In this document: in pieces, positions 1,194 to 61,698 of the stretch | How positions within the stretch are numbered: position 1 is the first letter of the stretch | Layout: each line of letters begins with the position of its first letter | Source of the DNA: Bacteroidaceae bacterium | GTDB taxonomy: Bacteria; Bacteroidota; Bacteroidia; Bacteroidales; Bacteroidaceae | Direction: 5' to 3' | DNA length: 64,000 nucleotides | Assembly: GCA_017621515.1 (NCBI GenBank) | Contig: JAGASY010000008.1 | Location: forward strand, 8,759-72,758 | Program-made: the position numbers and the translations under genes | Notes under the pieces: model-generated | Databases searched by the model: none | What the model saw: the letters and a program-made list of their open reading frames with translations, nothing else | What the model was told of the DNA's origin: nothing

Positions 1194-1937
1194 CTATACT
1201 TTTAACCATTCATCGTCTGGTTTGGCGATTAATCTGGCATTATTTATCGCCATATCAAGTGTCAGACATGTTGATGCTCGATAAACACCATTCTCTTTCT
1301 CTATTACCAAAGCTAAATCAGCAGATGCCTTAGATGTCAAACATAATGGTAATAATAATTGTAAGCGTCCATCATAATATTGAGGAACAGCAGTTTTGTA
1401 ATTTCGTCTAATTCTTCTAATGGCATCATTTATTGTACCTTGAAGTAGAACTCCTAATTGATATTTATCCATAGCTTGTAAAGCTGCTGGGAATCTCGCT
1501 ATATTGTCATCTATAATATGATTGACATTGGTACGCAATTCCAATTTTGTGTCATATATTAAATCAGACGAATTTTCAAAGTAGTTAGCATTTTCGGGCA
1601 GACTTGTAAACTTCATCAAATCTCTGTCGCTTGCCTTACGCCATCCTAAGAAAAACCATTGGATAGATCCGGGACGTCTGTTCTTTTGACACAATGCAAA
1701 TATTTCTTCTTGATAATCAGTAACCAATCCGGTGTTGAACAATGAATATCCGTTTTGTTCTAACACTTTATTCTCTTCGTAGAGCTTTACGAATGTATGT
1801 TTTATGTAATTCTCTAATATAGGATTTTTCCCGATAGGGCTATTTTTATAATCCCAATCCTCTTTCATAGCCATAGATTTTAGCTCCTCTATAACCCCAT
1901 GAAAATCAACAAACCAAGCGTATTCAAAAAGTTTCAT
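1194..1937 (-). CDS. DUF3825 domain-containing protein
   Basis: 247 aa. The pattern WDY..SP....PIL.NY..HTF ... FNTGLVT ... WFFLGW matches my recollection of the DUF3825 family. Confidence 0.65.
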   Translation of the reverse strand: MKLFEYAWFVDFHGVIEELKSMAMKEDWDYKNSPIGKNPILENYIKHTFVKLYEENKVLEQNGYSLFNTGLVTDYQEEIFALCQKNRRPGSIQWFFLGWRKASDRDLMKFTSLPENANYFENSSDLIYDTKLELRTNVNHIIDDNIARFPAALQAMDKYQLGVLLQGTINDAIRRIRRNYKTAVPQYYDGRLQLLLPLCLTSKASADLALVIEKENGVYRASTCLTLDMAINNARLIAKPDDEWLKV

Positions 1938-5216: not shown

Positions 5217-5250
5217 GGTGTAGGTGTATTCGCAGACTGCTCTGTTGCTT
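5217..5250. repeat. REP-like half-site (GGTGTAGGTGTATTCGCAGACTGCTC)
   Basis: Same family as 36949-37012. It lies 38 bp outside the left end of element copy A. Confidence 0.6.
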
Positions 5251-5280
5251 AAACATTCTAAAAATTCGACTTTTTCAATT

Positions 5281-6024
5281 TGACAAAATGATATTTTCGC
5301 TCAAAATGAAAATTTAACACTTCGAGCGATTTTATGCTGAGAAAGAAGAGATAAAAATTTTAGCTTAAAGATATTTAATTGATAATCAGCTAAATACAAA
5401 AATCTTCGAAACGCTCAAAAAAACGCACCGGATGCAATTTTTCGAGAATTTTGAATATTCTGATAATCTATTGATTATTAATATTTTACAATCAAAAACA
5501 TCATTTTCGCTCTCAAATGCCCTCAAAAATTCACTCGCTTTTAAGATTCTGTTCAGACTCATTGCCAAAGCAGTAAATTATACACTTCTTAATACTCCAA
5601 GCGGAGCAAACTGTCTTTTTCTCCGCTTCCCACTGTTTTTTTTCTTTGCAGCGCGCTGTTTTTATTTTTTCAGCGCACAGTGCAGAAAACTGTAGCGCAC
5701 AGGAAATAAAATTACAGTGCGCTGTGGAGAAAAAAACTGTGCGCTGAAAATTTGAAAACTTAGTACTTTTTTTCCGAGAACTCTTCGCTTAGGATAAATA
5801 AATGTAAAAGAACTGTTCCAAAACGAAACACAATTTCACATTTTGCAGAGCCTTTAGAAAATGCGTGTAGAATCCCCGTTCTTCGAGAAAAGTTCGTCGC
5901 GCTTCATTTTGACGCGTGCCAGAGGACTTGGAATTTTAACATTTGGCAAAATCAAAAGGATGGTGTTTTGGGCGTAAATTTGGCAAAATGAAATAAAATG
6001 GCTAATTATGTTGTTATTTTGCCA
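5281..6024 (+). repeat. Copy A of the 742-744 bp ORF-less modular element (MITE-like or noncoding RNA/operator module)
   Basis: Collinear with 12905-13646 and, as reverse complement, with 23333-24074, 37085-37828 and 60174-60917. The left end is TGACAAAATGATA and the right end is a degenerate inverted copy. The CAGCGCRC array lies at 5649-5746. No reading frame is conserved among the copies. Confidence 0.9.
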
Positions 6025-6615
6025 GAAAAATAACTTTGTTAAAATGTGCATATCAATTTTTTTTGTTATGGACACTTTTTGGGCATGTTTTTGACTGTCT
6101 ATGTGATTATGCTCCACAGGCACCTTTTGTTGTCTTTTGTGGAAGTCTTTGACTGATTTCTTCTTAAAACCCAAAAGGATTCTGTAAATACATCTAATTG
6201 AAAATAGTATGATGAATATATGAATATACCCGCTTGAACCATTCACTTTCCCAACTGACAAAATGTTAATTAAACCTACAGAAATTTGTGTTCCCTTTTA
6301 CTTTCTTTTTGTAAACAAAAACCGTTAAATTATTACATAAAACACATAAACATACACTTTTTTGCATCCTAAAGCTATGAAATTAATAAATATTCACCTA
6401 AAAATTTTGTTTGAAACATTTGTTTGCGTATTTTTGTCCTCAATTTACAAAAAGATAGTAAAACGACGCAAAATAAAATCATAAAGAAAGCGACAAATTC
6501 ATTTTTACGGCGACACTACATTTAATATCCCACCAAGTGAATCTTAATGCTTTTCTTGAGAATATGATGCTATTGCAATTTTTTAATTAATTATTTTAAA
6601 TAAAAGTTTGAGAGA

Positions 6616-12823: not shown

Positions 12824-12904
12824 AGTGGTTCATGGACATTCAATTCGGATTGGTAAGTATTTACAACATGGAGTAAACACATACAAAAACACTATTCCTC
12901 AAAA

Positions 12905-13646
12905 TGACAAAATGATATTTTCGCCCAGAATGAAAATTTAACACTTCGAGCAATTTTTTGCCGATGGCAAAAAAGAGAAAAATTTGAAGCGAAAATAAAT
13001 TATTGATAATCAATTAAATATAAAATTCTCAAAAACGCTCAAGAAATTGTGCTGGACGCAATTTTTTTGTAAATTCTGAATATTTGACAATGTGCTGACT
13101 ATCAATGTCTTACAGGTGAAAGCTCCATTTTCACCCTCAAATACCTCCAAAAACTCATTCGCTTTTCTGCTTCTGTTCAGCCACACTTTCAAAACAGGAA
13201 TTATACACTTCTTAACATTTCAACCGAATTTCGCTGTCTTTTTTCCCCTTTCCCAGTGCATTTTCAAAAAATCTATACTGAAAATTTCTCCAATCTACTA
13301 AGCGCGCGAATTTGTAGCGCACTGTCGTTGTCGGAACAGTGCGCTGAAAAAGTGGTGACAGTGCGCTGGAAATATCAAAACTTAGTAGATTGGAGAAAAC
13401 AATTCTTCGCCAAAGATAAATGAATGTAAAAGAACTGTCAAAAAAGAAACACTATTTCACAATTCGCAGAGCCTTTAGAAAATGCGCGTAGAATCCCCGT
13501 TCTCCGAGAAAAGTTCGGTGCGCCTCATTTTGACGCGTGCCAGCGGGCTTGGAATTTTAACATTTGACAAAATCAAAAAGAAAGTATTCCAATGTAAAAT
13601 GATTGAATTATAATCAAAATATATGAAATATGCTATCATTTTGTCA
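12905..13646 (+). repeat. Copy B of the 742-744 bp ORF-less modular element
   Basis: TGACAAAATGATA at the left end and TATCATTTTGTCA at the right end match 13/13 as inverted repeats. The CAGCGCRC array lies at 13301-13368 and is bracketed by a perfect 17-bp inverted repeat (13286-13302 / 13381-13397). The conserved right-hand block is present. Confidence 0.9.
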
Positions 13647-14159
13647 AAACAGGGCATCCCTCAAAAAAACGATGTCAAAAATTTTTTTATGGAGCTTCAT
13701 TTTTAGGGCGAACAAGACTCTTGAAACTTATGTTTGTTTTGAAATCATCCCGGCAAAACAGGACAAAAAATATCAGCAGGTGCAATATATATTTTTCTCA
13801 TGCAACGGTTCATTCCCTTTTATTTTCTTTTCAGGGATTAAGCCTGAAGAGGAAACAGCTCGAAGACTGTGGGAAGAAGGGATGAGACCGGCGGCGATTG
13901 CCGCATAACTGCCAATTCAAAATTTAACGGGCTGTTACTTTTATGATATGGCATGTTTGATAACCTTTTTCGTTCTTTTTGTAGCAGAAAACCGTAAATT
14001 TGTTCTCCTTGTAATGCTAATTTATGCAAAATACTATCAAGCAGTCTGTTTTGTAATCCTTTTTTCATATTTTTGTAGCGAAAATAATCAAATCTCTGAG
14101 AAAATGCTTTCTAAAAAGGGAAGAACTAATGAAATTATAATTTTACAAACAAAAGATTT

Positions 14160-18140: not shown

Positions 18141-18190
18141 AAAGAGAGCCATATCACTACTCGCAAAGAGTGTGGTATGGCTCTCTTTTA
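18141..18190 (+). terminator. Hairpin terminator after the 1299-aa gene
   Basis: AAAGAGAGCCATA ... TATGGCTCTCTTT followed by TAT. Confidence 0.55.
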
Positions 18191-18272
18191 TATGCTGAGA
18201 AATCATACAGTTAAGTTTCTTGCGAGACTTGAAAAAAATATCTACATTTGCTCCCGACAAATAGTAAATCTT

Positions 18273-19940
18273 ATGAAAACAGACATTGAAATTGCGAGAG
18301 AGTGCCGGCTTGCTGAGATAGACGAAGTGGCACGCAAGATAGATATTCCGACAGACCGACTTGAATATTACGGCAAGAATATCGCCAAGGTTCCAGAAAG
18401 CCTTATTGATGAGGAAAAAGTCAAGAAAAGCAACTTGATTCTTGTCACAGCCATAACTCCGACAAAAGCAGGAATCGGTAAGACAACCGTATCAATAGGT
18501 CTGGCTCTTGGTTTGAACAAGATTGGCAAGAAGGCGGTGGTGGCACTGCGTGAGCCTTCTCTCGGTCCGTGTTTCGGACTTAAGGGAGGAGCCGCGGGAG
18601 GTGGATATGCCCAGGTGCTGCCTATGGAGAAGATTAATCTGCATTTCACGGGCGACTTCCATGCCATCACATCTGCACACAATATGATAAGCGCATTGCT
18701 TGATAACTATATATATCAGCACCGCGAAGAAGGATTTGCTCTGAAAGAAGTGTTGTGGAAACGAGTTCTTGATGTCAACGACCGCAACCTGCGTTTCGTT
18801 GTCACCGGACTGGGTGCAAAGACTGACGGAACTGTGCAGGAAAGTGGGTTCGATATAACTCCGGCAAGTGAGATTATGGCAATTCTGTGTCTGGCGAAAG
18901 ATAGGGACGACTTGCGTCGTCGTGTAGAGAACATACTTCTCGGAATCACGACAGACGGACGGCCGTTTACTGTGAAAGACATGGGAGTCGGAGGTGCCAT
19001 AACAGTGCTTCTGATGGATGCCATTCATCCGAATCTTGTGCAGACAACGGAGCAGACTCCGGCATTCGTACACGGAGGGCCGTTTGCTAACATCGCCCAC
19101 GGATGCAGTTCTATCCTATCGACCAAGCTTGCTATGACATTCGGAGATTATGTTGTCACGGAAGCTGGTTTCGGTGCTGACCTTGGCGCAGAGAAATTCT
19201 TTGACATAAAGTGCCGGAAAGCCGGTTTGCAGCCTAAACTTACTGTCATTGTTGCTACAACACAGGGACTGAAGATGCATGGCGGTGTTAGTCTGGACAA
19301 CATCAAACTTCCAAATGAACAAGGACTGAAAGATGGACTCAAGAATCTTGATCGTCATATCCATAATATGCAGTCATACGGACAGACTGTCGTGGTGGCT
19401 TTCAATCGCTATGCGACAGATACGGACGAAGAACTTGACATTGTGCGTCGCCATTGCGAGGAACTCGGTGTGGGATTCGCCATAAATAATGCTTTCCTTG
19501 AAGGAGGAGAAGGGGCTGTTGAACTTGCCAAGGTAGTTTGCGAACAGATAGACAGCCGTCCGTCGCAGCCGCTTCAGTTATGCTATGATGACCAAGACGA
19601 TATTAAAACTAAGGTGGAGAAGGTTTGTACGAAGATCTATGGTGCAGCAAGTGTAAGCTATGCCAAGGCCGCTGAAAAAATGCTGCAAAGAATAAAGTCG
19701 CTTGGTCTGGAGCATTATCCGGTATGTATTGCCAAGACTCAGTATTCATTTTCTGCCGATCCGGGTCTGTACGGCACTCCGTCAGGTTTCTCCATCCGCA
19801 TACGCGACTTTGTCATCAACCGTGGTGCGGAAATGATTGTTGCGATTGCCGGTGACATATTGCGTATGCCGGGATTGCCTCGCTCACCGCAAGCGGAGAG
19901 AATAGACATTGTTAATGGACAGATTGAAGGATTGTCCTGA
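18273..19940 (+). CDS. fhs: Formate--tetrahydrofolate ligase
   Basis: Begins MKTDIEIA; [11 protein letters not shown]-loop; [11 protein letters not shown]; [13 protein letters not shown]. The ORF extends back to 18177, but the conserved N-terminus starts at 18273. Confidence 0.95.
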
Positions 19941-20033
19941 TTTTGAATTCATACCGGAGATTGAATGGCTCTTTATATGCGAAAGCTACATTCAGTCTCC
20001 GGAATATTTAGCCATCTTCAATATTTTGTGCAG

Positions 20034-21361
20034 ATGAAGATAAATCTAAAAAAATTCTTCCATATCAGTATCACGGAAGAAGAACAGCAACAAACAATTG
20101 ATTCAATTGTAAGCGGAATACAGTTCAAGGGGATGAATCTGTGGGTGCTTATATTCGCCATATTTATTGCTTCACTCGGACTGAATGTTAACTCGACAGC
20201 CGTCATAATCGGTGCCATGCTTATATCACCTCTGATGGGACCTATCATCGGAATGGGACTCTCCATTGGCATTACGGACTTTGATTACTAAAACGGTCGC
20301 TCAAGAACTTCGGTGTGGCAACAGGTATCTCGGTACTTACGGCAACCATTTATTTTACGGTCACTCCACTGACTGAAGCACAATCTGAATTGCTGGCGCG
20401 CACGTCGCCTAATATCTATGACGTGTTGATAGCCTTGTTTGGAGGACTGGCAGGTATTGTGGCGATATGTGCAAGAGAAAAAGGCAATGTGCTTCCGGGA
20501 GTTGCCATAGCTACAGCCCTTATGCCTCCGCTATGTACAGCCGGCTACGGAATTGCCACAGGGCAATGGATGTACTTTTTCGGAGCGTTCTATTTGTATT
20601 TCATAAACACCGTGTTCATCACTGTTGCTACATTCGTAGGAGTCAGAATGATGAATTTCTCATATAAGACATATATAGACAAGAAGCGGGGAAGCATATT
20701 GAAACGCTATATCTATATCATCGTCATTGCCACCATTATTCCTTCTGTAGTGATGACTTATAGCATCGTAAAAGAATCATTCTACAAGTCGCATGCAGGC
20801 GCATTCATCAACAATGAATTTAATTTCAGTCACACTCAGGTGATACAGAAAGAAATTTCCTACAAAAACAAGGAAATAAGGGTTGTGCTCATGGGTGAAG
20901 AACTACCGGCGAAAATGATTGCAACCGTAGAACAGAGAATGGATGGTTACAAACTGAAAGGCACAAAACTTATTGTCATACAGGGAATCAACAACAGTAA
21001 CAATGTAGATGTCTCATCCATTAAAACCATCGTAATGAAAGACCTGTATGAGAAGAATGAAAAAACGATAGAGGAGCAGCGCAAGCAAATAGAAACACTT
21101 GAAAATGCTGCGGAGCAGGAGAAGAAGTTTGGTGAACTTACTATGGCGCTAAGCTGTGAAATATCTACGCTTTTTCCCGGTATAAAGTCGCTCACGCTCA
21201 ACCGCACTGTCAGATGCTATACTACAGACTCCATAGCTCCTGACACATTGTGTCTTGCCACTCTTTCTTTCGACAAACAACCGAAGCAGGAGGAGCTGAC
21301 GCGGTTGAAAAACTGGCTTATGAAGCGTACTCAAGAAAAGAATCTGGAGATTCTATATTAA
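20034..21361 (+). pseudogene. DUF389 family membrane protein, interrupted by a single-base frameshift near 20283-20287
   Basis: The N-terminal part (20034-20291, ...[13 protein letters not shown]) continues as ..[24 protein letters not shown].. in the frame offset by one base. MPPLCTAGYG is typical of DUF389. Confidence 0.75.
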
Positions 21362-22181: not shown

Positions 22182-22263
22182 GCCCAGATGGCGGAATCGG
22201 TAGACGCGCTGGTCTCAAACACCAGTGGAGCAATCCATCCCGGTTCGATCCCGGGTCTGGGTA
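22182..22263 (+). tRNA. tRNA-Leu (anticodon CAA), class II with long variable arm
   Basis: Cloverleaf folded by hand: acceptor GCCCAGA/TCTGGGT, anticodon stem CTGGT/ACCAG with loop CTCAAAC, variable arm TGGAGCAATCCATC, T-arm CCCGG-TTCGATC-CCGGG. CCA is not encoded. Confidence 0.9.
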
Positions 22264-22386
22264 CAGGTAAAAGCTAAGTATTGATTTTTTCAATTACTTG
22301 GCTTTTCTTTTTTATCAGACTCTTCGGGTCAGCAGATTTGGGTATAAAAAAGGTCAGCTAATAAATATTATCGCTGATTTTGCTAT

Positions 22387-23094: not shown

Positions 23095-23332
23095 ATCGCA
23101 ATACTTCTCAAAAATCGTCTTTTTTGAGAAGTGTTTTTCTTCTAATTCAAATTCAATTGGAAGAATAGAGATTTTTAGTTTCATTCTGACTTCTCCGCAT
23201 ATATTTCAAAATTTAATAGGCTATTGTCGTAGATAAGTTTAACTAATTATTCTGGTTTATACATTGTTGTAACCTATATTTAAAGCTCCATAAAAAATTT
23301 TTTGACATCGTTTTTTGAGGTATATTTTGTTT

Positions 23333-24074
23333 TGATAAAATGTCGATGTATTTTGAATAATACAATCATATTGACAAATAATATTTGTTCTCGCTGTCTT
23401 TTTGATTTTGCCAAATGTTAAAATCCTGAGCCCTCTGGAATGCTTCAAAATGAGGCGCGCCGAACTTTTCTCAAAGAATGGGGATTTTGTGAGCGTTTTC
23501 AAAAGCTTTCACGAATTGTGAAATAGTGTTTCGTTTTAGAACGGTTCTTTCACATTTGTTTATTCTTGACGAAGAGTTTTCTGGAGAAGAGTACTAAGTT
23601 TTTAAATTTTCAGCGTACTGTTTTTTTCTTCGCAGCGCACTGCAATTTTCTTCACAGCGCACTGGAAATTCTCTCACTGTGCGCTGAAAATTTGATGATA
23701 GTGCGCTGAAATTAAAAAAATACTGGGATGTGGAGAATAAGACAGCGGAGTTCATCCTAAATGTTAAGAAGTGTATAATTTGTTGCATGGGAAGAGGGGC
23801 AGAACAGAAACTGAAAAATGGGTATTGTTCGGGCGGTATTTGGGAACGGAAACGGTGGACTTATTTGTAATATATTAATAATCAGAGATTTATCAGAATA
23901 CTCAAATTTATCGAAAAATTGCGTCCGGCGCATTTTTTGAACGATTTCTATAAAATTATATCTTTTTGATTATCAGAGTCTTATCTTTGAGTCAAAATTT
24001 TCGTCTTCTCGCCATCGACAAAATATCGCTCCAAGTGTTAAATTTTCATTTTGAGTGAAAATATCATTTTGTCA
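23333..24074 (-). repeat. Copy C of the 742-744 bp ORF-less modular element (most diverged copy)
   Basis: Its reverse complement is collinear with copy A. The ends are TGATAAAATG (degenerate) and TATCATTTTGTCA. The CAGCGCRC array lies at 23611-23707. Confidence 0.85.
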
Positions 24075-24116
24075 AATTGAAAAATGCCGTTTTAGCATGA
24101 TTTTCTACTGTTTTAT

Positions 24117-24180
24117 GTGGTATCCGTCACAGGTCTCCCCCTCCCCAAAAATAGAATAAGGTTAGGAGAGCCTGTGATGA
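24117..24180. repeat. REP-like palindrome (GTGGTATCCGTCACAGGTCTCC ... GGAGAGCCTGTGATGA)
   Basis: Inverted arms seen directly. It lies about 42 bp outside the left end of element copy C. Confidence 0.6.
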
Positions 24181-24220: not shown

Positions 24221-24901
24221 TTATAGGTCTTCGCCATTTGCCCTATTGTATTCATTATCATAGAACATAGTAATATAGTATTTTCCAAAATATTGAGAAA
24301 TTATAAACCATACAGGCTTTTTTGTAATAGTTTCAGTAACATAGTTTAAAGATGCTTTGTATATTATATCTTTTTTGGTTTCTTCTGTGAGGTTGTCAAA
24401 TTCTTGTTGAGTGTATTTTTCTAAAATATACGCTTGTAATTTGTTAGCGATTTCTATAGAATCTGCAATTAGTGCTCTTTGATAAAATATAGCTTGGTAT
24501 CTTTTGTTATTCACTGTTAATTCATAGGATATGTTTTCATCGTCAGCTATTGTATAATCGTCAAAACTTATATAATTAGAGTTGCTTTGAAATTGCTGAC
24601 ATAATTTATTAAAGCGGATTTTAATGTTTGTTTCATCTGTTTGATGCATGTCACATACCATAATTCGGCATACTTTATTATTGTTCGTCGCAATATGTAC
24701 ATACACTTGTGTGCCGTTAAATTCTCCTTCTAACACATCTTTGTCAGTTGCAGAATTTACGAATCCTTTTCCTTTAAGTTTTTGGATCATTTCAGATTTA
24801 AAACCATCGATAGGAATTCCCATAAATTTAGTTACATCTTTTTGAGCAAATAGAGAATTTGAGATTACCAATAAAACAATAATAAATAGTTTTCTTCTCA
24901 T
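24221..24901 (-). CDS. Hypothetical secreted protein
   Basis: 226 aa. N-terminal signal peptide MRRKLFIIVLLVISNSLFAQ. I recognise no family. Confidence 0.65.
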   Translation of the reverse strand: MRRKLFIIVLLVISNSLFAQKDVTKFMGIPIDGFKSEMIQKLKGKGFVNSATDKDVLEGEFNGTQVYVHIATNNNKVCRIMVCDMHQTDETNIKIRFNKLCQQFQSNSNYISFDDYTIADDENISYELTVNNKRYQAIFYQRALIADSIEIANKLQAYILEKYTQQEFDNLTEETKKDIIYKASLNYVTETITKKPVWFIISQYFGKYYITMFYDNEYNRANGEDL

Positions 24902-24982
24902 AGCTTTTTAATTTTATCTTACCTCCAGCTACCACAAGGATTGTTTATTATATCACAGAAGCGTGGAACTGCAATGCCACGT

Positions 24983-25110
24983 CTTAGTTTGAAGGTCGTA
25001 GGAAACCCATATATACAGATGTAGTAATAGCAGCCCACGCTATAGCGTGAGAACCACTATGCTATCCTCGTATATATTTTTGAAAATTTCCTACGTTTTC
25101 AAACTACAAG
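24983..25110. other. Imperfect hairpin of about 130 nt (candidate structured RNA or palindromic element)
   Basis: TAGTTTGAA..CGTAGGAAA pairs with TTTCCTACG..TTCAAACTA. Inner pairs are ATATATAC/GTATATAT, and the centre is the palindrome CACGCTATAGCGTG. Confidence 0.3.
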
Positions 25111-25344
25111 ATAAGCATAACGCTTCTTCTTTTTCTAATATGTCTTGGATGTAGGTTTTCCTACTCCGGTGGCAAAGATATAAAAATAGTCTGATATAAT
25201 GCAATATATGAGTAGATTATAATTTTGTTTTTCTTCTTTCCTTTTTATGCTTCTGGGTTACGCTGAATCAATATCTTTGGTATGTTGTTATATTATGAGT
25301 GTCAAAACAAAGATAATGTATATAAGATTAGAATACTTAGAAGA

Positions 25345-35363: not shown

Positions 35364-35684
35364 ATGGCAAAAAACACAATGGGCACTAAGTTGCCTCGAA
35401 GACTGGAACAAAAAATGATCTTGATGGGCGAGCAAATTAAGCTTGCCCGTCTGCGCCGAAATCTCTCGATAGCTCAGGTTGCAGAACGAGCAACCTGTTC
35501 ACCGCTGACAATTGCACGCATTGAAAAAGGTTCTTCTACCGTTTCTATCGGTATATATGCCCGTGTCCTTTATGCTTTGCAGCTTGATGATGACCTTTTG
35601 CTGATTGCAAAAGAGGACACACTCGGTCGTACCTTGCAAGATCTTAGCCTAAAACACCGTCAACGCGCATCAAAAAAGGAATAA
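35364..35684 (+). CDS. XRE-family HTH antitoxin (HipB-like)
   Basis: 106 aa. IKLARLRRNLSIAQVAERATCSPLTIARIEKG. Its stop lies 3 nt before the hipA start. Confidence 0.8.
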   Translation: MAKNTMGTKLPRRLEQKMILMGEQIKLARLRRNLSIAQVAERATCSPLTIARIEKGSSTVSIGIYARVLYALQLDDDLLLIAKEDTLGRTLQDLSLKHRQRASKKE

Positions 35685-35687
35685 ACC

Positions 35688-36941
35688 ATGCAAAGATTAT
35701 ATGTATATGCCGATTTCGATTGCATCGATACACCTCAATTAGTTGGGATATTGTCGTGCGATTCAGTACGTGGCAATGAGACTTATAGCTTCTCGTATGA
35801 TAAAGATTGGCTTGCCATGTACGGAAATATTTTTTTGAGTAACGATTTGCAGAATTATCCCGGCATCCAATATACAAGACCGGAGCGAGATATATTTGCT
35901 TGTTTCTCGGATGCATTACCCGATAGATGGGGACGCACATTACTGAATCGACGTGAACAGATTGCAGCTGTGGAGGAAAAGAGGAAGGTGCGCCGTTTGA
36001 CTTCATTCGACTATCTGATGGGTATTGATGATGCGTCAAGGATGGGGGGATTTAGGTTTGCTGAAACTCCCGGAAGTAAATTCCTCAATTGTGATGACAG
36101 ATTGCGAGTTCCACCATTGACAAGCGTCAGAGAACTGATGCATGCTGCACATGAGGTTGAAGTCAGCGAAGAAAAGCATTTATTGCCCTCAAAGAAATGG
36201 TTAGCACAGTTGTTGCATCCCGGAACATCACTCGGTGGAGCCAGACCTAAAGCGTCTGTCATTGACGATGCCGGAAGGTTAACTATTGCCAAATTTCCTT
36301 CTCGCAAAGATGATTATGATGTCGCTCAATGGGAGCATTTCTGTCATATTATGGGACGCAAAGCTGGGATTAATGTAGCCGAAACACGCACAGTACCGGG
36401 AGAAAATTACCATATCTTACTTTCGAGACGATTTGACAGAACAGACAATGGTAAAAGAATACATTTCGCTTCATCACTGACATTGTTAGGGCTGACAGAT
36501 GGCGACAATGCATCAACAGGCTATGGCTATACCGATATAGTTGATTTCATTATTCAGCATGGATGCGATGTAGAACAAAATCTTGAAGAGTTGTATCGCC
36601 GTGTGGCATTCTACATCATTATTGGCAATTCCGATGACCATTTCCGTAATCATGGATTTCTATTGACACGTAAAGGTTGGAAACTTTCTCCAGCCTACGA
36701 CATCAACCCAACACTTGCTGAAAATCAAAGCCTATTGATTAATCGTACAACCGATGAGTCTAACTTGAATATTCTTTTAGAATCTTCCGGAGACTACATG
36801 CTTTCAGCCACGAAAGCTCAAACTATTATTATGGAAGTAAAAACTGCTATGGAATCGTGGCATCACGAAGCTCGAAAGCTCGGATTGCCACAACGAGACA
36901 TTGATATGTTTGCGCCTCGCTTTGAAAAATGTATGTCATGA
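35688..36941 (+). CDS. hipA: Type II toxin-antitoxin system HipA family kinase toxin
   Basis: 417 aa. HipA N-terminal coupling region, SLGGARPKA, and the catalytic GNSDDHFRNHGF. Confidence 0.9.
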   Translation: MQRLYVYADFDCIDTPQLVGILSCDSVRGNETYSFSYDKDWLAMYGNIFLSNDLQNYPGIQYTRPERDIFACFSDALPDRWGRTLLNRREQIAAVEEKRKVRRLTSFDYLMGIDDASRMGGFRFAETPGSKFLNCDDRLRVPPLTSVRELMHAAHEVEVSEEKHLLPSKKWLAQLLHPGTSLGGARPKASVIDDAGRLTIAKFPSRKDDYDVAQWEHFCHIMGRKAGINVAETRTVPGENYHILLSRRFDRTDNGKRIHFASSLTLLGLTDGDNASTGYGYTDIVDFIIQHGCDVEQNLEELYRRVAFYIIIGNSDDHFRNHGFLLTRKGWKLSPAYDINPTLAENQSLLINRTTDESNLNILLESSGDYMLSATKAQTIIMEVKTAMESWHHEARKLGLPQRDIDMFAPRFEKCMS

Positions 36942-37012: not shown

Positions 37013-37084
37013 AAACATTACATACATCTATAAAAGGCTTCATAACAAAATTTTTTATATATAATTTTTAACAAAAATATTTTC

Positions 37085-37828
37085 TGACAAAATGATAGTG
37101 TATCTTTGCTTGTGAGGCTCTTGATTGTAGTAATTTAGCCAAAATACTTTCTTTTTGATTTTGTCAAATGTTAAAATCCCAAGCCCTCTGGAACGCTCCA
37201 AAATGAAGCGTGCTGAACTTTTCTCGAAGAATGAGGATTCTGTGCGTATTTTCTGAAGGCTCTACAAAATGTGAAATAGTGTTTCATTTTGGAGCAGCTC
37301 TTTTACATTTATTTATTTCCGGCGAAGAGTCTTTTTGAAAAAAGTACTAAGTTCTCAAATTTTCAGCGCGCAGTTTTTTTCTCCACAGCGCACTGCAATT
37401 TTATTTCCTGTGCGCTACAATTTTCTGCACTGTGCGCTGAAAAAATAAAAACAGCGCGCTGAAAAGATGAAAACAGTGGGCAGCGGAGAAAAAGACATTT
37501 TGCTTCGGTTGAAATGTTAAGAAGTGTATAGTTCATTGCTTCGAAAGAGTGTCTGAACAGAACTTTAAAAGTGAATGAATTTGAAATAGCATTTTGGAGT
37601 AAAAATGTTAGGTTTGCTTGTAATATATTAATAATCAGTAGATTATCAGAATACTCAAAATGCTCGAAAAATTGCGTCCGGTATGTTTTTTTGAGTATTT
37701 TGTGTAAAATTATATCTTGCTGATTGTCAATACTTTATCCTTGCTGTGAAATTTTTGTCTTTTCCTCCTCGACAAAAAATCACTCGAAGTGTTAAATTTT
37801 CATTTTGAGCGAAAATATCATTTTGTCA
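37085..37828 (-). repeat. Copy D of the 742-744 bp ORF-less modular element
   Basis: Terminal TGACAAAATGATA / TATCATTTTGTCA match 13/13. The CAGCGCRC array at 37364-37461 differs from copy A at only about 8 positions by eye. Confidence 0.9.
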
Positions 37829-37869
37829 AAATGAAAATGGTGCGAATTATAGAAAATTTAGCATTTTAT

Positions 37870-37888
37870 AGGTCTGTCAGATACATCC
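37870..37888. repeat. REP-like half-site AGGTCTGTCAGATACATCC
   Basis: Lies about 41 bp outside the left end of copy D. It resembles 25366-25385. Confidence 0.5.
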
Positions 37889-53330: not shown

Positions 53331-54809
53331 TTATAGTTTGATTTTCAAGATATTTCCATCTTCAAATCTGATGATGTTCACAGAACCCTTTCTTGGCTCT
53401 TTCAAGAGTCTTCCATCTACAGAATACACCTTATATCTCTTTGCTGCCAAATCTTCCTTTACAGACAAAATACCTGTCTCAAAATCGTTTTGAGCGTTCT
53501 TTGCATCTGCAATAATCTTGTCGATAGCTTCTGTGATGGTGGCAGAGTCGATATGGCTTTCTTCTGTGAGCTGTATGTCTGCATACTGTTTTTCCACATC
53601 TGCCTTTATTTGGTCGATAGACTCCTGCACTGCGGCTAATGCCTCTTCAAAGTTTTGTGCCACATCCGGACATTCCGTGGATATCGATGTCTTTGCAGCA
53701 GACAGCTTTGAGTTGAGAGCTTTTATCTCTTTGGTCAATGCGGCATATACAGTCTTGTTCACCTTCATTTCGTCGGTTTCGTAAGTCAAATACTTGAAGT
53801 TGTTGGCAATGAGCAAATCTACCAGCTCTTTACCTCTTGTCTGATATTCTCCGCTCTGATCGACTCCTGCATAGTCCATCAATATGATGCCAGTCGGTCC
53901 GGCTACATGTGAGTTCAGGTATTTGATGATTGCCGTATGTGTGTAAGTGGCATTGTCTCTGTAACCATCACTTATGGATATGCTACCCAGCAGAGTTTTT
54001 GAATAAGCTGATGCAAAGTTATATACCCACACAATCTGTCCTCTCGTCTTTGTCACATGTTGGGTACTGAAGTCAAGCATCTTATTGATGGCTTCTATCT
54101 TTACGTCTATGTCACCTTCTTTATGAGTGTCAGAGAAGTCCTGCATATAGAGTCTGCCTTTTGCGTATGTGCTTGAAGTGGCTCCTGTGATGAGTCCTTG
54201 AGTCTGTGCGTTCCAATCTACATATCCGCACCAGTTGGAGAAGAATCCGCCTATAGGCTTGCTTGCATATTTGTCTCGGCTATGTATCAGTATTTTGCCT
54301 CTCATGTCTCCCACAGTCAAGTCTGTCCTAAAGTCGGCAAGATAAGGCTTAAGTTCATCGCTTTTCAACAACTCTTGTATCATTGAGTTGTAAACATTCT
54401 CAACTTTGTCTCCGTCTGAGGCATGTAACAGATGGATGATGGCAAATTCTGTTGGATTGGCGATGAGCGAATCTCTTAACTGGAAAAGTACTTCATCAAA
54501 ATGGGCTTTGGTCGCTACTATACCGTGGTTGCAGTGCAGATAGCCTTCGCGTGTTGCCGGACGAAGGTCAAAAGCACGTATGCCCAGTTTCCATTGTTCT
54601 CCGATGGTCAAGTCCTGAGTGCGGGCGAAAGATTCTCCCAAAGACTCAGAGCCTTCCTCAAACCCTTCTCCTGTGGCAGAATCGTGTGAACCCGGAATAG
54701 ACAGTACAGCCACGTATGTCTCGTCCGGCAGATGTTTCATCCAGTTGTCTGCAAAAGTGTAATTGCTCACGCAAGTGGTGAGCAGTAGTGAAAGTAAAGT
54801 TTTTTTCAT
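53331..54809 (-). CDS. Secreted PI-PLC X-domain (PLC-like phosphodiesterase) protein with helical linker and T9SS C-terminal domain
   Basis: 492 aa. Signal peptide, SIPGSHDSAT and IRAFDLR (PI-PLC X-box), an A/E/K-rich helical segment, and a beta-rich C-terminus ..YKVYSVDGRLL...ILKIKL. Confidence 0.75.
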   Translation of the reverse strand: MKKTLLSLLLTTCVSNYTFADNWMKHLPDETYVAVLSIPGSHDSATGEGFEEGSESLGESFARTQDLTIGEQWKLGIRAFDLRPATREGYLHCNHGIVATKAHFDEVLFQLRDSLIANPTEFAIIHLLHASDGDKVENVYNSMIQELLKSDELKPYLADFRTDLTVGDMRGKILIHSRDKYASKPIGGFFSNWCGYVDWNAQTQGLITGATSSTYAKGRLYMQDFSDTHKEGDIDVKIEAINKMLDFSTQHVTKTRGQIVWVYNFASAYSKTLLGSISISDGYRDNATYTHTAIIKYLNSHVAGPTGIILMDYAGVDQSGEYQTRGKELVDLLIANNFKYLTYETDEMKVNKTVYAALTKEIKALNSKLSAAKTSISTECPDVAQNFEEALAAVQESIDQIKADVEKQYADIQLTEESHIDSATITEAIDKIIADAKNAQNDFETGILSVKEDLAAKRYKVYSVDGRLLKEPRKGSVNIIRFEDGNILKIKL

Positions 54810-59894: not shown

Positions 59895-60085
59895 TTTAGA
59901 AATTGTTTTAAAATGATTCGTTATAGTTATGTGGATGTCTTCGACAGACTCCTCCGTCGCTACGCGCCACCTCCCCTGTTAGGGAAGGTGGTGTGGTAGC
60001 GACGGAGGGGGCTGTTGAAGACATTTGCTTAATCTGTTGAAGACATCCACGTAACTATAACGAATCATTTTTAACCAGTTTCTAA
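59894..60085. repeat. Nested REP-like palindrome cluster of about 190 bp directly after the GH127 stop
   Basis: Outer arms are GTTTAGAAATTGTTTTAAAATGATTCGTTATAGTTATGTGGATGTCTTC / GAAGACATCCACGTAACTATAACGAATCATTTTTAACCAGTTTCTAA. Inner arms are CCTCCGTCGCTAC..CACCTCCC / GGAAGGTGGTGTGGTAGCGACGGAGG. Confidence 0.85.
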
Positions 60086-60173
60086 TATATCTATAAAGCA
60101 TATTATATGTTGCCATAATTTAGTTCCCCATAAAAAAATTTTTGATATCGTTTTTTTGAGGGGTATTCGAATT

Positions 60174-60917
60174 TGACAAAATGACAACATATTTAATTGT
60201 TCTGGTTTCTAAATTTCTGATTTTATACTATTAATCTGTCTTTTTGATTTTGTCAAATGTTAAAAAATCAAGCCCTCTGGAACGCTCCAAAATGAGGCAT
60301 GTCGAACTTTTCTTGAAGAATGGGGATTCTACGCGCATTTTCTGAAGGCTCTGCAAAATGTGAAATAGTGTTTCGTCTTGGAGCAGTTCTTTTACATTTA
60401 TTTATTTCCGGCAAAGAGTATTTGGAAAAAAAGTACTAAGTTCTCAAAATTCCAGCGCACTGTCGTCAAATTTTCAGCGCACTGCAATTTTATTTGCAGC
60501 GCAGTAGAAATTTTCTCACTGTGCGCTGAAAAAATAAAAACAGCGTGCTGAAAATAAAATTGCAGTGGGAAGTGGAGAAAAAGACAGTTTGTTTCGGTTG
60601 AAATGTTAAGAAGTGTATAATTCGTGGCATGGGAGGAGTGTTTGAACAAAAACTGAAAAGTGAGTGGATTTGAAGCGGTGTTTGGGTATGGAAACGGTGA
60701 GATTAGTTGTAAGATATTAATAATCAATATATTACTAAAATACGCGAAAATCTCGAAAAATTGCCTCCGGCGCGCTTTTTTGAGTTTTTTGAGAATTTTT
60801 ATATCCGATTGATTATCAATTAATTATCTTTGAGCCGAAATTTTTGTCTCTTTATCCCCGGCAAAAAATCATCCGAAGTGTTAAATTTTTATTTTGGGCG
60901 AAAATATCATTTTGTCA
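60174..60917 (-). repeat. Copy E of the 742-744 bp ORF-less modular element
   Basis: Ends are TGACAAAATGACA / TATCATTTTGTCA. The CAGCGCRC array at 60453-60550 has five to six cores. The conserved right-hand block is present. A REP-like half-site at 60950-60969 lies 33 bp outside the left end. Confidence 0.9.
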
Positions 60918-61080
60918 TCTTTAAAAGTGAATTTTTAGCGTGTTTTTTTGTGGATGTGTTGAATATACCACTAAAATTCATGTGGAATTGATTTTCATTG
61001 ACTTTTATCGCAGAAAATCAACTATATTAGAAAATGACGGTACAACTATTTGTTAGGGAAAAGAAAGCCCTAATTTCAAA

Positions 61081-61698
61081 GTGGCCGAATTTGACCACTT
61101 TAGAATGAGTGCAGGTTTGCCGTCTTTTGTGTTGAGTGCTTCGGAGTGGATAGAGCGCACGAATGCAATCGGGATAATAGTGAAGAAAGGTCGTTATGGA
61201 GGCACCTATGCTCATAAGGATATAGCCTTTGAGTTTGGTTCGGCAATAAGTGTGCCGTTCAAACTTTATCTTATCGAGGAATTTCAGCGGTTAAAGACGG
61301 AGGAACAGCGGTTATTGGGTTGGTCAGCGAAACGTGAGCTGTCGAAAATCAACTACCGCATACATACCGATGCCATAAAGCAGAACCTTATCCCTGCAGA
61401 GGTTACTCCGGCACAGGCGAGCGTCATCTATGCCAATGAAGCCGATGTGTTGAATGTGGCGATGTTCGGTGTAACGGCGAAACAATGGCGCGAATCCAAT
61501 CCCGACCTCAAAGGGAACATACGCGACTATGCTACAATCAACGAACTTATCTGCTTGTCAAATATGGAGAACCTCAATGCGGTTTTCATCGAACAAGGAA
61601 TGGCGCAAAGCGAGCGGCTTGTGAAGCTGAATCAGATAGCCATTCATCAGATGAGCGTGCTGGAAAGCGGCGACAACGATAGAAAACTATTGAAATAA
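61081..61698 (+). CDS. C-terminal two-thirds of a KilA-N family protein; the N-terminal KilA-N domain is missing or decayed (possible pseudogene)
   Basis: GRYGGTYAHKDIAFEFGSAISVPFKLYLIEEFQRLK and KINYRIHTDAIKQNLIP match the conserved core of Bacteroidales KilA-N proteins. The ORF starts at GTG, and an in-frame TAG lies at 61054-61056 within upstream sequence that still looks homologous (..SPNFK). Confidence 0.6.
   Translation: MAEFDHFRMSAGLPSFVLSASEWIERTNAIGIIVKKGRYGGTYAHKDIAFEFGSAISVPFKLYLIEEFQRLKTEEQRLLGWSAKRELSKINYRIHTDAIKQNLIPAEVTPAQASVIYANEADVLNVAMFGVTAKQWRESNPDLKGNIRDYATINELICLSNMENLNAVFIEQGMAQSERLVKLNQIAIHQMSVLESGDNDRKLLK

Follow-up and report, generated by a model that had tools for sequence, protein, structure and literature searches.

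What kind of sequence is repeated five times within 64 kb of a rodent-gut Bacteroidales genome, has no open reading frame, differs at many of its positions from copy to copy and yet keeps its length almost to the nucleotide? The window analysed here, the whole 64-kb stretch, contains five such copies, and the initial annotation inferred that they do not represent a recent MITE burst but that selection acts on their non-coding modules. It left three candidates open: a structured RNA gene family, a protein-binding chromosomal landmark, or an old domesticated non-autonomous transposon. Following up this proposal supports its central inference, disfavors the RNA candidate, and suggests that the other two are probably two halves of one story.

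Architecture of the repeated unit

The five loci align collinearly from end to end (745 columns, 84% mean column identity; blastn of copy A against the others, 74-83%), and the distance between the inverted TGACAAAATGATA motifs (terminal inverted repeats, TIRs) is 744, 742, 742, 744 and 744 bp. As originally described, the right TIR matches 13/13 in copies B and D and is degenerate in A, C and E, and a third, direct copy of the motif (TTGRCAAAATCA) lies inside the right end; it sits 80-81 nt before the right TIR. The blocks that had been singled out as conserved are near-invariant across 59-119 further copies: the first ~45 nt, the TTGATAATCA boxes, TATACACTTCTTAA, the CAGYGCRC array and a right-hand block of about 160 nt. 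The ends, however, had been set too far in. Family homology runs past both TIRs, by about 20-45 nt on the left, and on the right into an obligatory 46-nt tail ending in AAAAATTTTNTTATGGRG, which exists in two discrete versions and never occurs without the core, so that the unit is about 835 bp. The central array consists of up to five 10-mers of the form CAGYGCRCTG at exactly 22-bp spacing (203 of 218 intervals), and one third of copies, including B, carry an alternative module in place of units 1-2. The features of the window are as follows:

5236..6070 (+), copy A, full unit: left extension, TIR-to-TIR core 5281-6024 and 46-nt tail, version 2. The orthologue in the metagenome strain (L051:5851-6688) is 99.9% identical by one comparison, while a column-wise count finds 9 differences in 826 columns.
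5281..5293 (+), left terminal motif TGACAAAATGATA of copy A, which opens the near-invariant 45-nt block.
5379..5388 (+), TTGATAATCA box, a near-palindrome 98 nt from the left end (SD 0.29), with inverted partners TGATTATTAAT about 93 nt further on.
5649..5746 (+), central array in copy A: five 10-mers (CAGCGCGCTG, CAGCGCACAG, TAGCGCACAG, CAGTGCGCTG, CTGTGCGCTG) starting every 22 bp, with A/T-tract spacers.
5794..5960 (+), conserved right-hand block (ATAAATAAATGTAAAAG ... GAAACACTATTTCACA ... GAGAAAAGTTC ... TTTTAACATTTGRCAAAATCA); the last three of these landmarks keep internal distances of 60 nt and 49 nt in 59 of 59 copies (SD = 0).
5943..5954 (+), inner, direct copy of the terminal motif (TTGGCAAAATCA in copy A).
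6012..6024 (+), right inverted motif, degenerate in A (TTGTTATTTTGCCA), preceded by the most variable segment of the element, about 55 nt long.
12860..13692 (+), copy B, full unit (core 12905-13646), with the alternative central-left module (only array units 3-5, about 13317-13370) and tail version 1. The orthologue in L093 is 92.6% identical.
23287..24119 (-), copy C, full unit (core 23333-24074; array about 23609-23706; tail version 1). The orthologue L073:2591-3434 is 98.8% identical.
37039..37873 (-), copy D, full unit (core 37085-37828; array about 37363-37460; tail version 2). The orthologue L017:8711-9555 is 99.1% identical.
60128..60962 (-), copy E, full unit (core 60174-60917; array about 60452-60549; tail version 1). 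The orthologue L038:9776-10616 is 95.1% identical.

This recurrence is far beyond chance. One rodent-gut metagenome that holds the same species carries at least 120 further copies, with paralogues about 72% identical; among about 7,000 paralogue pairs none exceeds about 85% identity. The family appears to be lineage-restricted, although a scan of genome contigs with too strict a pattern returned only 3 hits and its taxonomic breadth is therefore under-sampled. Literature searches found no description of it. The copies also break assemblies and seed spurious “hypothetical proteins” in databases, of which 16 clusters were found.

Selection on sequence and spacing

The copies do not code for protein. 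Variability is equal at the three codon positions, there is no period-3 signal, and no frame is open across copies for more than 63 codons. Comparison of five orthologous copy pairs from two strains nevertheless revealed strong constraint: the 120 substitutions between them fall at 7.3%, 3.8%, 2.2% and 0.5% in columns that are <60%, 60-80%, 80-95% and >=95% conserved among independent paralogues (chi-square p = 3e-18), a 14-fold difference between the extremes. The gradient holds within A/T and within G/C columns separately. Four-fold-degenerate divergence of flanking genes is 6.3%, so variable columns are about neutral and conserved ones at least 10 times slower. The signal comes mainly from copies B and E, which lie in the most diverged genome segments, and mutation-rate heterogeneity cannot be fully excluded. 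Gene conversion as the sole cause was judged insufficient, since it would not create the distinction between conserved and variable columns, and variable-column divergence equals the four-fold-site rate. DGR-like adenine mutagenesis, or another error-prone copying mechanism, was likewise rejected as the source of “diverged but same length” copies, because the substitution spectrum is an ordinary transition-biased one and variable columns evolve at the neutral rate in situ.

Spacing is also conserved. Eleven landmark-to-landmark distances have SD <=0.6 nt over 59 copies, including 106-nt and 80-nt stretches whose sequence is mostly free, and the only length variants are +/-22 bp. The 22-bp phase of the array is kept in the sister species, where all five sites read CACCGCGGTG, and in a ~50%-identical cousin, where they are direct GTGYGCCTTG repeats. 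Together, these results show that the copies in this window are old, fixed in place, and individually maintained by purifying selection on roughly 60% of their positions and on every inter-motif distance.

Could the constrained product be an RNA? Blocks that alternate with variable segments of fixed length recall some guide or scaffold RNAs, and the central array can fold into a long hairpin (z -3.7 in copy A; z -3.7 to -10 overall). However, no Rfam model was hit at the gathering threshold in the 64 kb, and in E-value mode only generic miRNA-hairpin models matched, at 15-35 bits against thresholds of 44-245. Mutual information with APC correction finds no stacked Watson-Crick pairs, and no compensatory pattern emerges in 47-111 sequences: RNAalifold gives -16.7 kcal/mol over 870 columns with a covariation term of -0.47 kcal/mol, 3 of 38 pairs each show a single compensatory case, a candidate 12-bp helix carries 14 A.C mismatches, and the inner motif does not covary with the right TIR. 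Pairing partners in the array differ from copy to copy, and its middle unit flips orientation. Scans for sigma-70-type and Bacteroidota-type promoters, which did not extend to those of alternative sigma factors, found none at a fixed position, and no terminator was found. Variable segments evolve neutrally, so they are not guides matched to targets, and unstructured RNA linkers would not need a length fixed to +/-1 nt. Selection on primary sequence and spacing could in principle act on an RNA that works through protein binding without conserved helices, but a family of RNA genes of about 0.8 kb seems unlikely.

Mobility, recombination and relatives

Evidence for a mobile origin comes from a single site that is filled in the sister species BH.3_6, with the boundary 3 nt before the left terminal motif, and empty in the window species. 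The copy-D site is also empty in relatives at 80% amino-acid identity and holds a diverged cousin element in L125, a metagenome sequence from another species. From the one filled/empty pair it can be inferred that the family began as a mobile, non-autonomous element bounded by TG...CA inverted repeats. Are the copies then an ordinary, still selfish MITE-type family, mobilized in trans by a transposase encoded elsewhere, whose conserved blocks are only the cis sites for transposition and bring the host no gain? The 13-bp inverted motifs with a third subterminal copy, the exclusively intergenic location in random orientation, the presence/absence between sister species, the species-specific consensus, the mosaic exchange of modules and the occurrence of elements at synteny breaks would all fit.

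Other observations argue against this reading. No group of near-identical copies exists among about 119 copies, and all five window copies are shared by strains that differ by 6% at four-fold sites. No target-site duplication flanks the TIRs or the outer edges in the 5 window copies and about 50 metagenome copies, although the filled/empty pair lacks its right junction because the contig ends inside the element. Homology extends beyond the TIRs, and the tail, which never occurs alone, was rejected as a pre-existing target site. Pfam searches of 44 window ORFs find no transposase, integrase or recombinase. Within the 1.2 Mb of the same genome that could be examined, the terminal motif is absent outside the elements and there is no multicopy coding element; plasmid and phage collections gave no match, and viral contigs only one chance hit in a giant-virus MAG. 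The condition under which the initial annotation would have been refuted, a transposase-bearing element with the same termini, was therefore not fulfilled in the sequences searched. Moreover, selection on transposition competence cannot explain a 14-fold depletion of substitutions, or the absence of indels, in copies that stay at fixed loci. A purely selfish family thus remains possible but unlikely.

The elements could instead be att-like or NIME-like modules, preferred junctions at which accessory gene blocks are swapped between strains through a site-specific recombinase or through homologous exchange in the conserved blocks, and retained for that role. In another strain (L131) copy A is a chimera whose last ~280 nt and all downstream genes are replaced; synteny with the sister species breaks at element ends; different accessory or toxin-type genes lie next to the same element end at the copy-D site in two species (HipA/HTH in one, Fic in the other); and alternative modules assort almost freely among copies. 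However, any dispersed repeat attracts rearrangement breakpoints, so the association may be passive, and only about four junctions were examined. The L131 crossover lies inside a conserved block and not at a defined core site, no recombinase lies next to the copies, and this role does not obviously need 835 bp of rigid architecture. It is considered improbable.

A further possibility, that the 743-bp core flips between its inverted motifs as an invertible promoter switch, is suggested by the motifs themselves and by the position of four of the five window copies upstream of a gene start on one side. It is largely refuted: without read-level data, all 59 full-length copies have the core in the same orientation relative to the asymmetric left extension and right tail, no promoter motif is conserved inside the element in the scans made, there is no nearby recombinase, and copies also lie between convergent gene ends. 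Nor is the array a CRISPR, as its repeats are 10-mers with 12-bp A/T spacers in a fixed 3-5 units per copy, and the window has no cas genes.

The closest described system is the BrickBuilt MITE of Porphyromonas gingivalis (Klein et al. 2015, PMC4596501), in the same phylum, which is also non-coding and always intergenic, reaches about 1 kb, and is built as a leader, internal short-period repeats (23 nt there, 22 bp here) and a tail, with small inverted ends. The two share no sequence similarity. BrickBuilt has 1 to 22.8 gapless tandem repeats, many partial copies, only about 19 copies, and IS5-type TIRs shared with resident ISPg elements. Here the array is fixed at 3-5 units of a 10-mer plus a 12-bp spacer, nearly all of the at least 120 copies are full length and of fixed length, and no IS with matching ends was found in the sequences searched; per-copy purifying selection was not tested for BrickBuilt. 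Pneumococcal BOX (boxA-B-C), enterobacterial ERIC/IRU and neisserial NIMEs/dRS3 and Correia elements appear comparable as modular or mosaic, ORF-less intergenic repeats in about 100 or more copies, but they are generally 100-300 bp, often vary in module number, and several form conserved hairpins. REP/BIME clusters and REPINs, with their RAYT partner, likewise seem to combine short palindromes in alternating orientation with species-specific sequence, and BIMEs may bind IHF and gyrase, but REPs are only 20-40 bp, in clusters of variable length, and the palindrome array here is only 100 bp of an 835-bp unit. No RAYT-like gene was seen in the third or so of one genome that was sampled, while a separate, genuinely REP-like hairpin family flanks many copies.

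A candidate protein-binding platform

What could demand both invariant blocks and invariant distances? The reading that accounts best for these observations, although it is held tentatively, is an old transposon-derived family now kept as a rigid DNA platform on which one or more lineage-specific DNA-binding proteins assemble. Candidate binding sites are the up to five 10-bp (quasi-)palindromes phased at exactly 22 bp, about two helical turns, and separated by A/T tracts; three TTGACAAAATSA sites, two of which form the inverted termini; and palindromic TTGATAATCAA boxes with several further invariant blocks. In this model the sequence between blocks is a neutral spacer of fixed length, a pattern that would be familiar from replication origins, iteron arrays, plasmid centromeres and recombination or transposition complexes. 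The 22-bp period does resemble an iteron array, but the neighboring genes are unrelated housekeeping or accessory genes with no adjacent Rep or Par gene. Several blocks are palindromic, as expected for dimeric DNA binders, and orientation is random relative to neighboring genes (12/12/10/10) and to GC skew, which fits orientation-independent DNA sites. The “invariant” blocks are species-specific, 97-100% kept within the species, 94% in the sister species and 71% in the cousin, as expected if they co-evolve with a trans-acting factor, although this drift also fits a selfish element co-evolving with its transposase. No binding protein has been identified and none of these data measure binding, the inter-landmark distances are not simple multiples of the helical repeat, and palindromy of the array is not conserved in the cousin family. 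The output of such a complex could include chromosome architecture, control of neighboring genes, and recombination or integration.

A bolder version, unlikely but not excluded, is that the elements are the cis half of a previously undescribed genome-wide system, in which a lineage-specific protein, or a set of them, assembles on each 835-bp platform into an origin- or centromere-like nucleoprotein complex. With five copies in the window (one per ~13 kb), these complexes would organize the chromosome, for example as domain boundaries or anchoring or loading sites, or would coordinate expression of neighboring genes, with platform and protein co-evolving rapidly between species.

Bacterial genomes are thought to hold little constrained non-coding DNA beyond promoters, small RNAs and short REP-type repeats, and dispersed repeats are usually read as selfish or decaying. 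Here an ORF-less 0.8-kb element, present in well over a hundred copies and amounting to about 6% of the genome if the density of the window holds genome-wide, shows the signature of a working part, and also marks points where strains exchange gene blocks. If a binding protein is found, this would be a tractable case of large-scale domestication of a transposon into a bacterial cis-element system, and a natural experiment in the co-evolution of a protein with hundreds of its sites.

Extent and distribution of the repeated unit

The five copies in the window, A to E, align collinearly over their whole length (745 columns, 84% mean column identity), and by blastn copy A is 74-83% identical to the others. 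Lengths between the left motif TGACAAAATGATA and its inverted copy are 744, 742, 742, 744 and 744 bp, and the elements are A+T-rich, with 34-35% G+C against 42.6% for the window. The blocks that the initial annotation had singled out are all present, and they stay near-invariant when about 119 further copies are added. However, the annotation had placed the ends of the element at the inverted motifs, and alignment with flanks shows that the family homology continues about 20-45 nt to the left of the left motif and exactly 46 nt to the right of the right motif, ending ...AAAAATTTTNTTATGGRG. This tail exists in two discrete versions, one carried by B, C and E and the other by A and D, and it is never found without the core (0 of 62 occurrences in 1.2 Mb), so that the repeated unit is about 835 bp. 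The central array also needs correction: it consists of up to five 10-mers, consensus CAGYGCRCTG, starting exactly every 22 bp. Of 218 neighbouring intervals, 203 are 22 bp and 13 are 44 bp, and one third of copies, including B, replace units 1-2 by an alternative module.

A scan of reference genomes with a 42-nt left-end pattern found only three hits, all in one MAG, Prevotellaceae bacterium BH.3_6. A profile search of loci from a rodent-gut metagenome gave 59 full-length copies and about 60 cut by stretch ends. That metagenome contains a strain of the window's own species: five loci (L051, L093, L073, L017 and L038) are collinear with the window at 95.5-99% identity and carry copies A-E at the same places. 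By alignment these copies are 99.9, 92.6, 98.8, 99.1 and 95.1% identical to those of the window, and a column-wise count gives 9, 53, 10, 7 and 41 differences in about 825 columns each. A pseudo-ORF that gene callers predict inside the element has only 16 relatives among 5.8 billion proteins, which points to a family confined to a narrow lineage, although its taxonomic range is under-sampled because both collection scans were limited. No plasmid or phage record matches.

Copies are always intergenic. Their orientation relative to the two neighbouring genes is random (12/12/10/10 for the four configurations) and does not follow GC skew. Neighbouring genes are unrelated to one another (ion channel, SusC/D, HipA, dGTPase, GH127 and others), and no transposase, integrase or recombinase is encoded in the window. 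The single tRNA gene of the window, tRNA-Leu(CAA) at 22182-22264, is not adjacent to any copy. Two further repeat families occur alongside the element. A small REP-like hairpin family, GTGGATGTATTCGAC-AGACTCCTCC-GTCGAATACATCCAC, has short and long-loop forms; of 88 motif hits in 1.2 Mb of the metagenome loci, 61% lie within 100 nt of an end of the 835-bp element, and in about 40% of copies its 3' arm ends a fixed 41-43 nt before the left TIR. A second, unrelated family of about 400 bp (about 88% identity between copies) occurs in the same genome at L030:7335-7758, L123:11304-11726, L067:1468-1870, L076:3332-3733 and about 10 further metagenome loci. Further features of the window are as follows.

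59907-60085, REP-like hairpin in its full long form, which differs between the two strains
about 955-990, a further occurrence of the hairpin family
952-1961, segment of about 1 kb absent from the otherwise collinear metagenome strain and also from L131, a locus of another strain of the same species; it carries a DUF3825 gene (1194-1937, minus strand)
24290-25304, segment of about 1 kb absent from the otherwise collinear metagenome strain; it overlaps a 226-aa ORF with no Pfam match (24221-24901) and lies about 170 nt from the left end of copy C
35364-36941, HTH and HipA genes
61081-61698, KilA-N gene
60398-60727 (minus strand), stop-free stretch inside an element
5854-6261 (minus strand), stop-free stretch inside an element

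Coding capacity, RNA structure and inversion

The element is not coding. Variability is equal at all three codon positions in the longest open frames, and there is no period-3 signal. Stop-free stretches inside the elements are called as "hypothetical proteins" of 65-154 aa in public assemblies (16 clusters, proteins P0121-P0136), but these are spurious ORFs in which all three codon positions vary equally.

A family of RNA genes is also unlikely. Rfam gives nothing at gathering threshold, and in E-value mode only generic miRNA-hairpin models hit, on the palindromic array. With 70-111 sequences at about 72% identity, mutual information finds no stacked Watson-Crick pairs, and RNAalifold on 47 paralogues gives -16.7 kcal/mol over 870 columns with a covariation term of -0.47. 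The only plausible long-range helix, between the inner motif and the right TIR, carries 14 A.C mismatches and does not covary. Expression signals are equally lacking: no Bacteroidota-type promoter occupies a fixed position, the best position being matched in 23% of copies, and no terminator was found. An invertible switch is very improbable, since in a comparison of assembled sequences all 59 full copies have the core in the same orientation relative to the asymmetric outer parts. Base-specific mutagenesis does not account for the divergence among copies either, as the substitution spectrum is ordinary and transition-biased.

Constraint on the sequence and spacing of individual copies

Paralogue identities form one tight peak (minimum 0.645, median 0.722), and no pair exceeds about 0.85. 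Variable columns are close to saturation, so the copies are old. To ask whether copies are constrained at their present loci, alignment columns were classed by their conservation among independent paralogues, and substitutions were then counted in the five orthologous pairs of the window strain and the metagenome strain. The 120 substitutions are strongly graded by column class (chi-square p = 3e-18).

Substitution rate between orthologous copies, by column conservation among paralogues
Conservation <60%: 7.3%
Conservation 60-80%: 3.8%
Conservation 80-95%: 2.2%
Conservation >=95%: 0.5%

The gradient holds separately for A/T and for G/C columns. Four-fold-degenerate sites of 26 flanking genes differ by 6.3% overall, so variable columns evolve about neutrally and the conserved third of the element evolves at least ten times slower. 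Divergence between the two strains is strongly mosaic, four-fold-site divergence per gene ranging from 0% (18177-21361) to 19% (53331-54809), which indicates frequent homologous recombination between lineages. The test rests on five orthologous pairs, with most of the signal coming from B and E. The pattern is that of purifying selection on copies that sit at fixed loci, which selection for transposition competence cannot produce.

Spacing provides a second line of evidence. Eleven successive landmark-to-landmark distances have standard deviations of 0 to 0.6 nt over 59 copies, even across 80-106-nt stretches whose sequence is largely free, and the only length variants are exact 22-bp steps.

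Mobility, mosaicism and a possible DNA platform

Comparison of filled and empty sites leads to the inference that the element was once mobile. In the sister species BH.3_6 (about 91% nucleotide and 93% amino-acid identity) a copy follows the HPPK gene; homology with the window species ends 3 nt before TGACAAAATGATA, and the window species has no element there. This insertion removes the HPPK stop codon, and the annotated protein runs 12 codons into the element (171 aa against 159 aa; L132:13077-13592 of BH.3_6 compared with the locus L104:7605-8084). Conversely, the site upstream of ftsX is filled in the window species, while in BH.3_6 it is empty and has different neighbouring genes. The copy-D site is empty in relatives at 80-81% dGTPase identity, where dUTPase and dGTPase are 70-130 bp apart. 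A relative at 90% dGTPase identity has, at the same place and in the same orientation, a collinear cousin element that is only about 50% identical, and whose array is four direct GTGYGCCTTG repeats still on a 22-bp period.

A still selfish MITE is a possible but doubtful reading. The element is non-coding, and whether it is bounded by TIRs is ambiguous, but three defining traits of a MITE were not found: a target-site duplication, although the right junction of the only filled/empty pair was lost at a contig end; an autonomous partner, within the roughly 1.2-1.4 Mb of related DNA examined; and recent mobility.

The "invariant" blocks are specific to each lineage. The cousin type does not occur in the window species, and columns that are >=95% conserved in the family are kept 97-100% within the species, 94% in BH.3_6 and 71% in the cousin. 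In BH.3_6 all five array sites read CACCGCGGTG. The blocks thus drift between lineages, as expected for sites that co-evolve with a trans-acting factor. Within the genome the family is a mosaic: the multi-nucleotide alternative modules (the central-left module, the unit 4-5 spacer, positions 672/677 and the tail) occur in all pairwise combinations and are mostly unlinked.

Copies also act as recombination substrates. In another strain of the same species (ENA ERZ27260069), copy A is a chimera (L131:9813-10648 compared with window 5281-6070). It is 98-99% identical up to about element position 560, beyond which the rest of the element is only paralogue-like and the downstream genes are entirely different (DUF1232, GluRS in place of SusC/D), so a strain-level rearrangement junction lies inside the element. 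Additionally, toxin-antitoxin, Fic and KilA-N type accessory genes repeatedly lie directly beside element ends, as with the HTH, HipA and KilA-N genes of the window and the Fic genes at L125:7902-9017 and L134:2147-3262, two further loci. At the copy-D site two species carry different accessory genes between dUTPase and the element. This may mean that the elements mark hot spots for accessory-gene gain, although a role as recombination or integration modules is considered unlikely overall.

Could the element instead act as DNA? Constraint acts on primary sequence in blocks and on all distances between them, the linkers evolve neutrally, the array keeps an exact 22-bp phase and several blocks are palindromic. 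Function, whatever it is, does not depend on orientation, and RNA-type signals are absent. A model in which the element is a rigid platform that binds one or more lineage-specific proteins is therefore preferred over its rivals, but only tentatively in the absence of expression or binding data. In this model the five GC-rich 10-mers, separated by A/T tracts, would lie on roughly one face of the helix, and the three TTGACAAAATSA sites, two of them inverted at the ends, could be bridged. Such an architecture appears to be that of iteron origins, plasmid centromeres and recombination or transposition complexes, and it seems also to match the classic oriC pattern of conserved boxes separated by spacers of fixed length. 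As single strands, the window-type and BH.3_6 arrays fold into long hairpins (z -3.7 to -10). However, the pairing partners differ between copies and the cousin array does not fold this way (z -2), so cruciform formation is not the conserved feature.

The nearest described element is BrickBuilt of P. gingivalis (PMC4596501), which belongs to the same phylum and is likewise non-coding, intergenic and built as a leader, short-period repeats and a tail. It is unrelated in sequence, varies in repeat number, is often fragmentary, has about 19 copies and shares IS5-type ends with resident IS elements. The BOX, ERIC, NIME and REP/BIME families share the general category of bacterial non-coding interspersed repeats but appear to be far shorter and not rigid. 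What is unusual in the present family is the demonstration, from five orthologous pairs for sequence and 59 copies for spacing, that hundreds of 0.8-kb copies are individually constrained in both.
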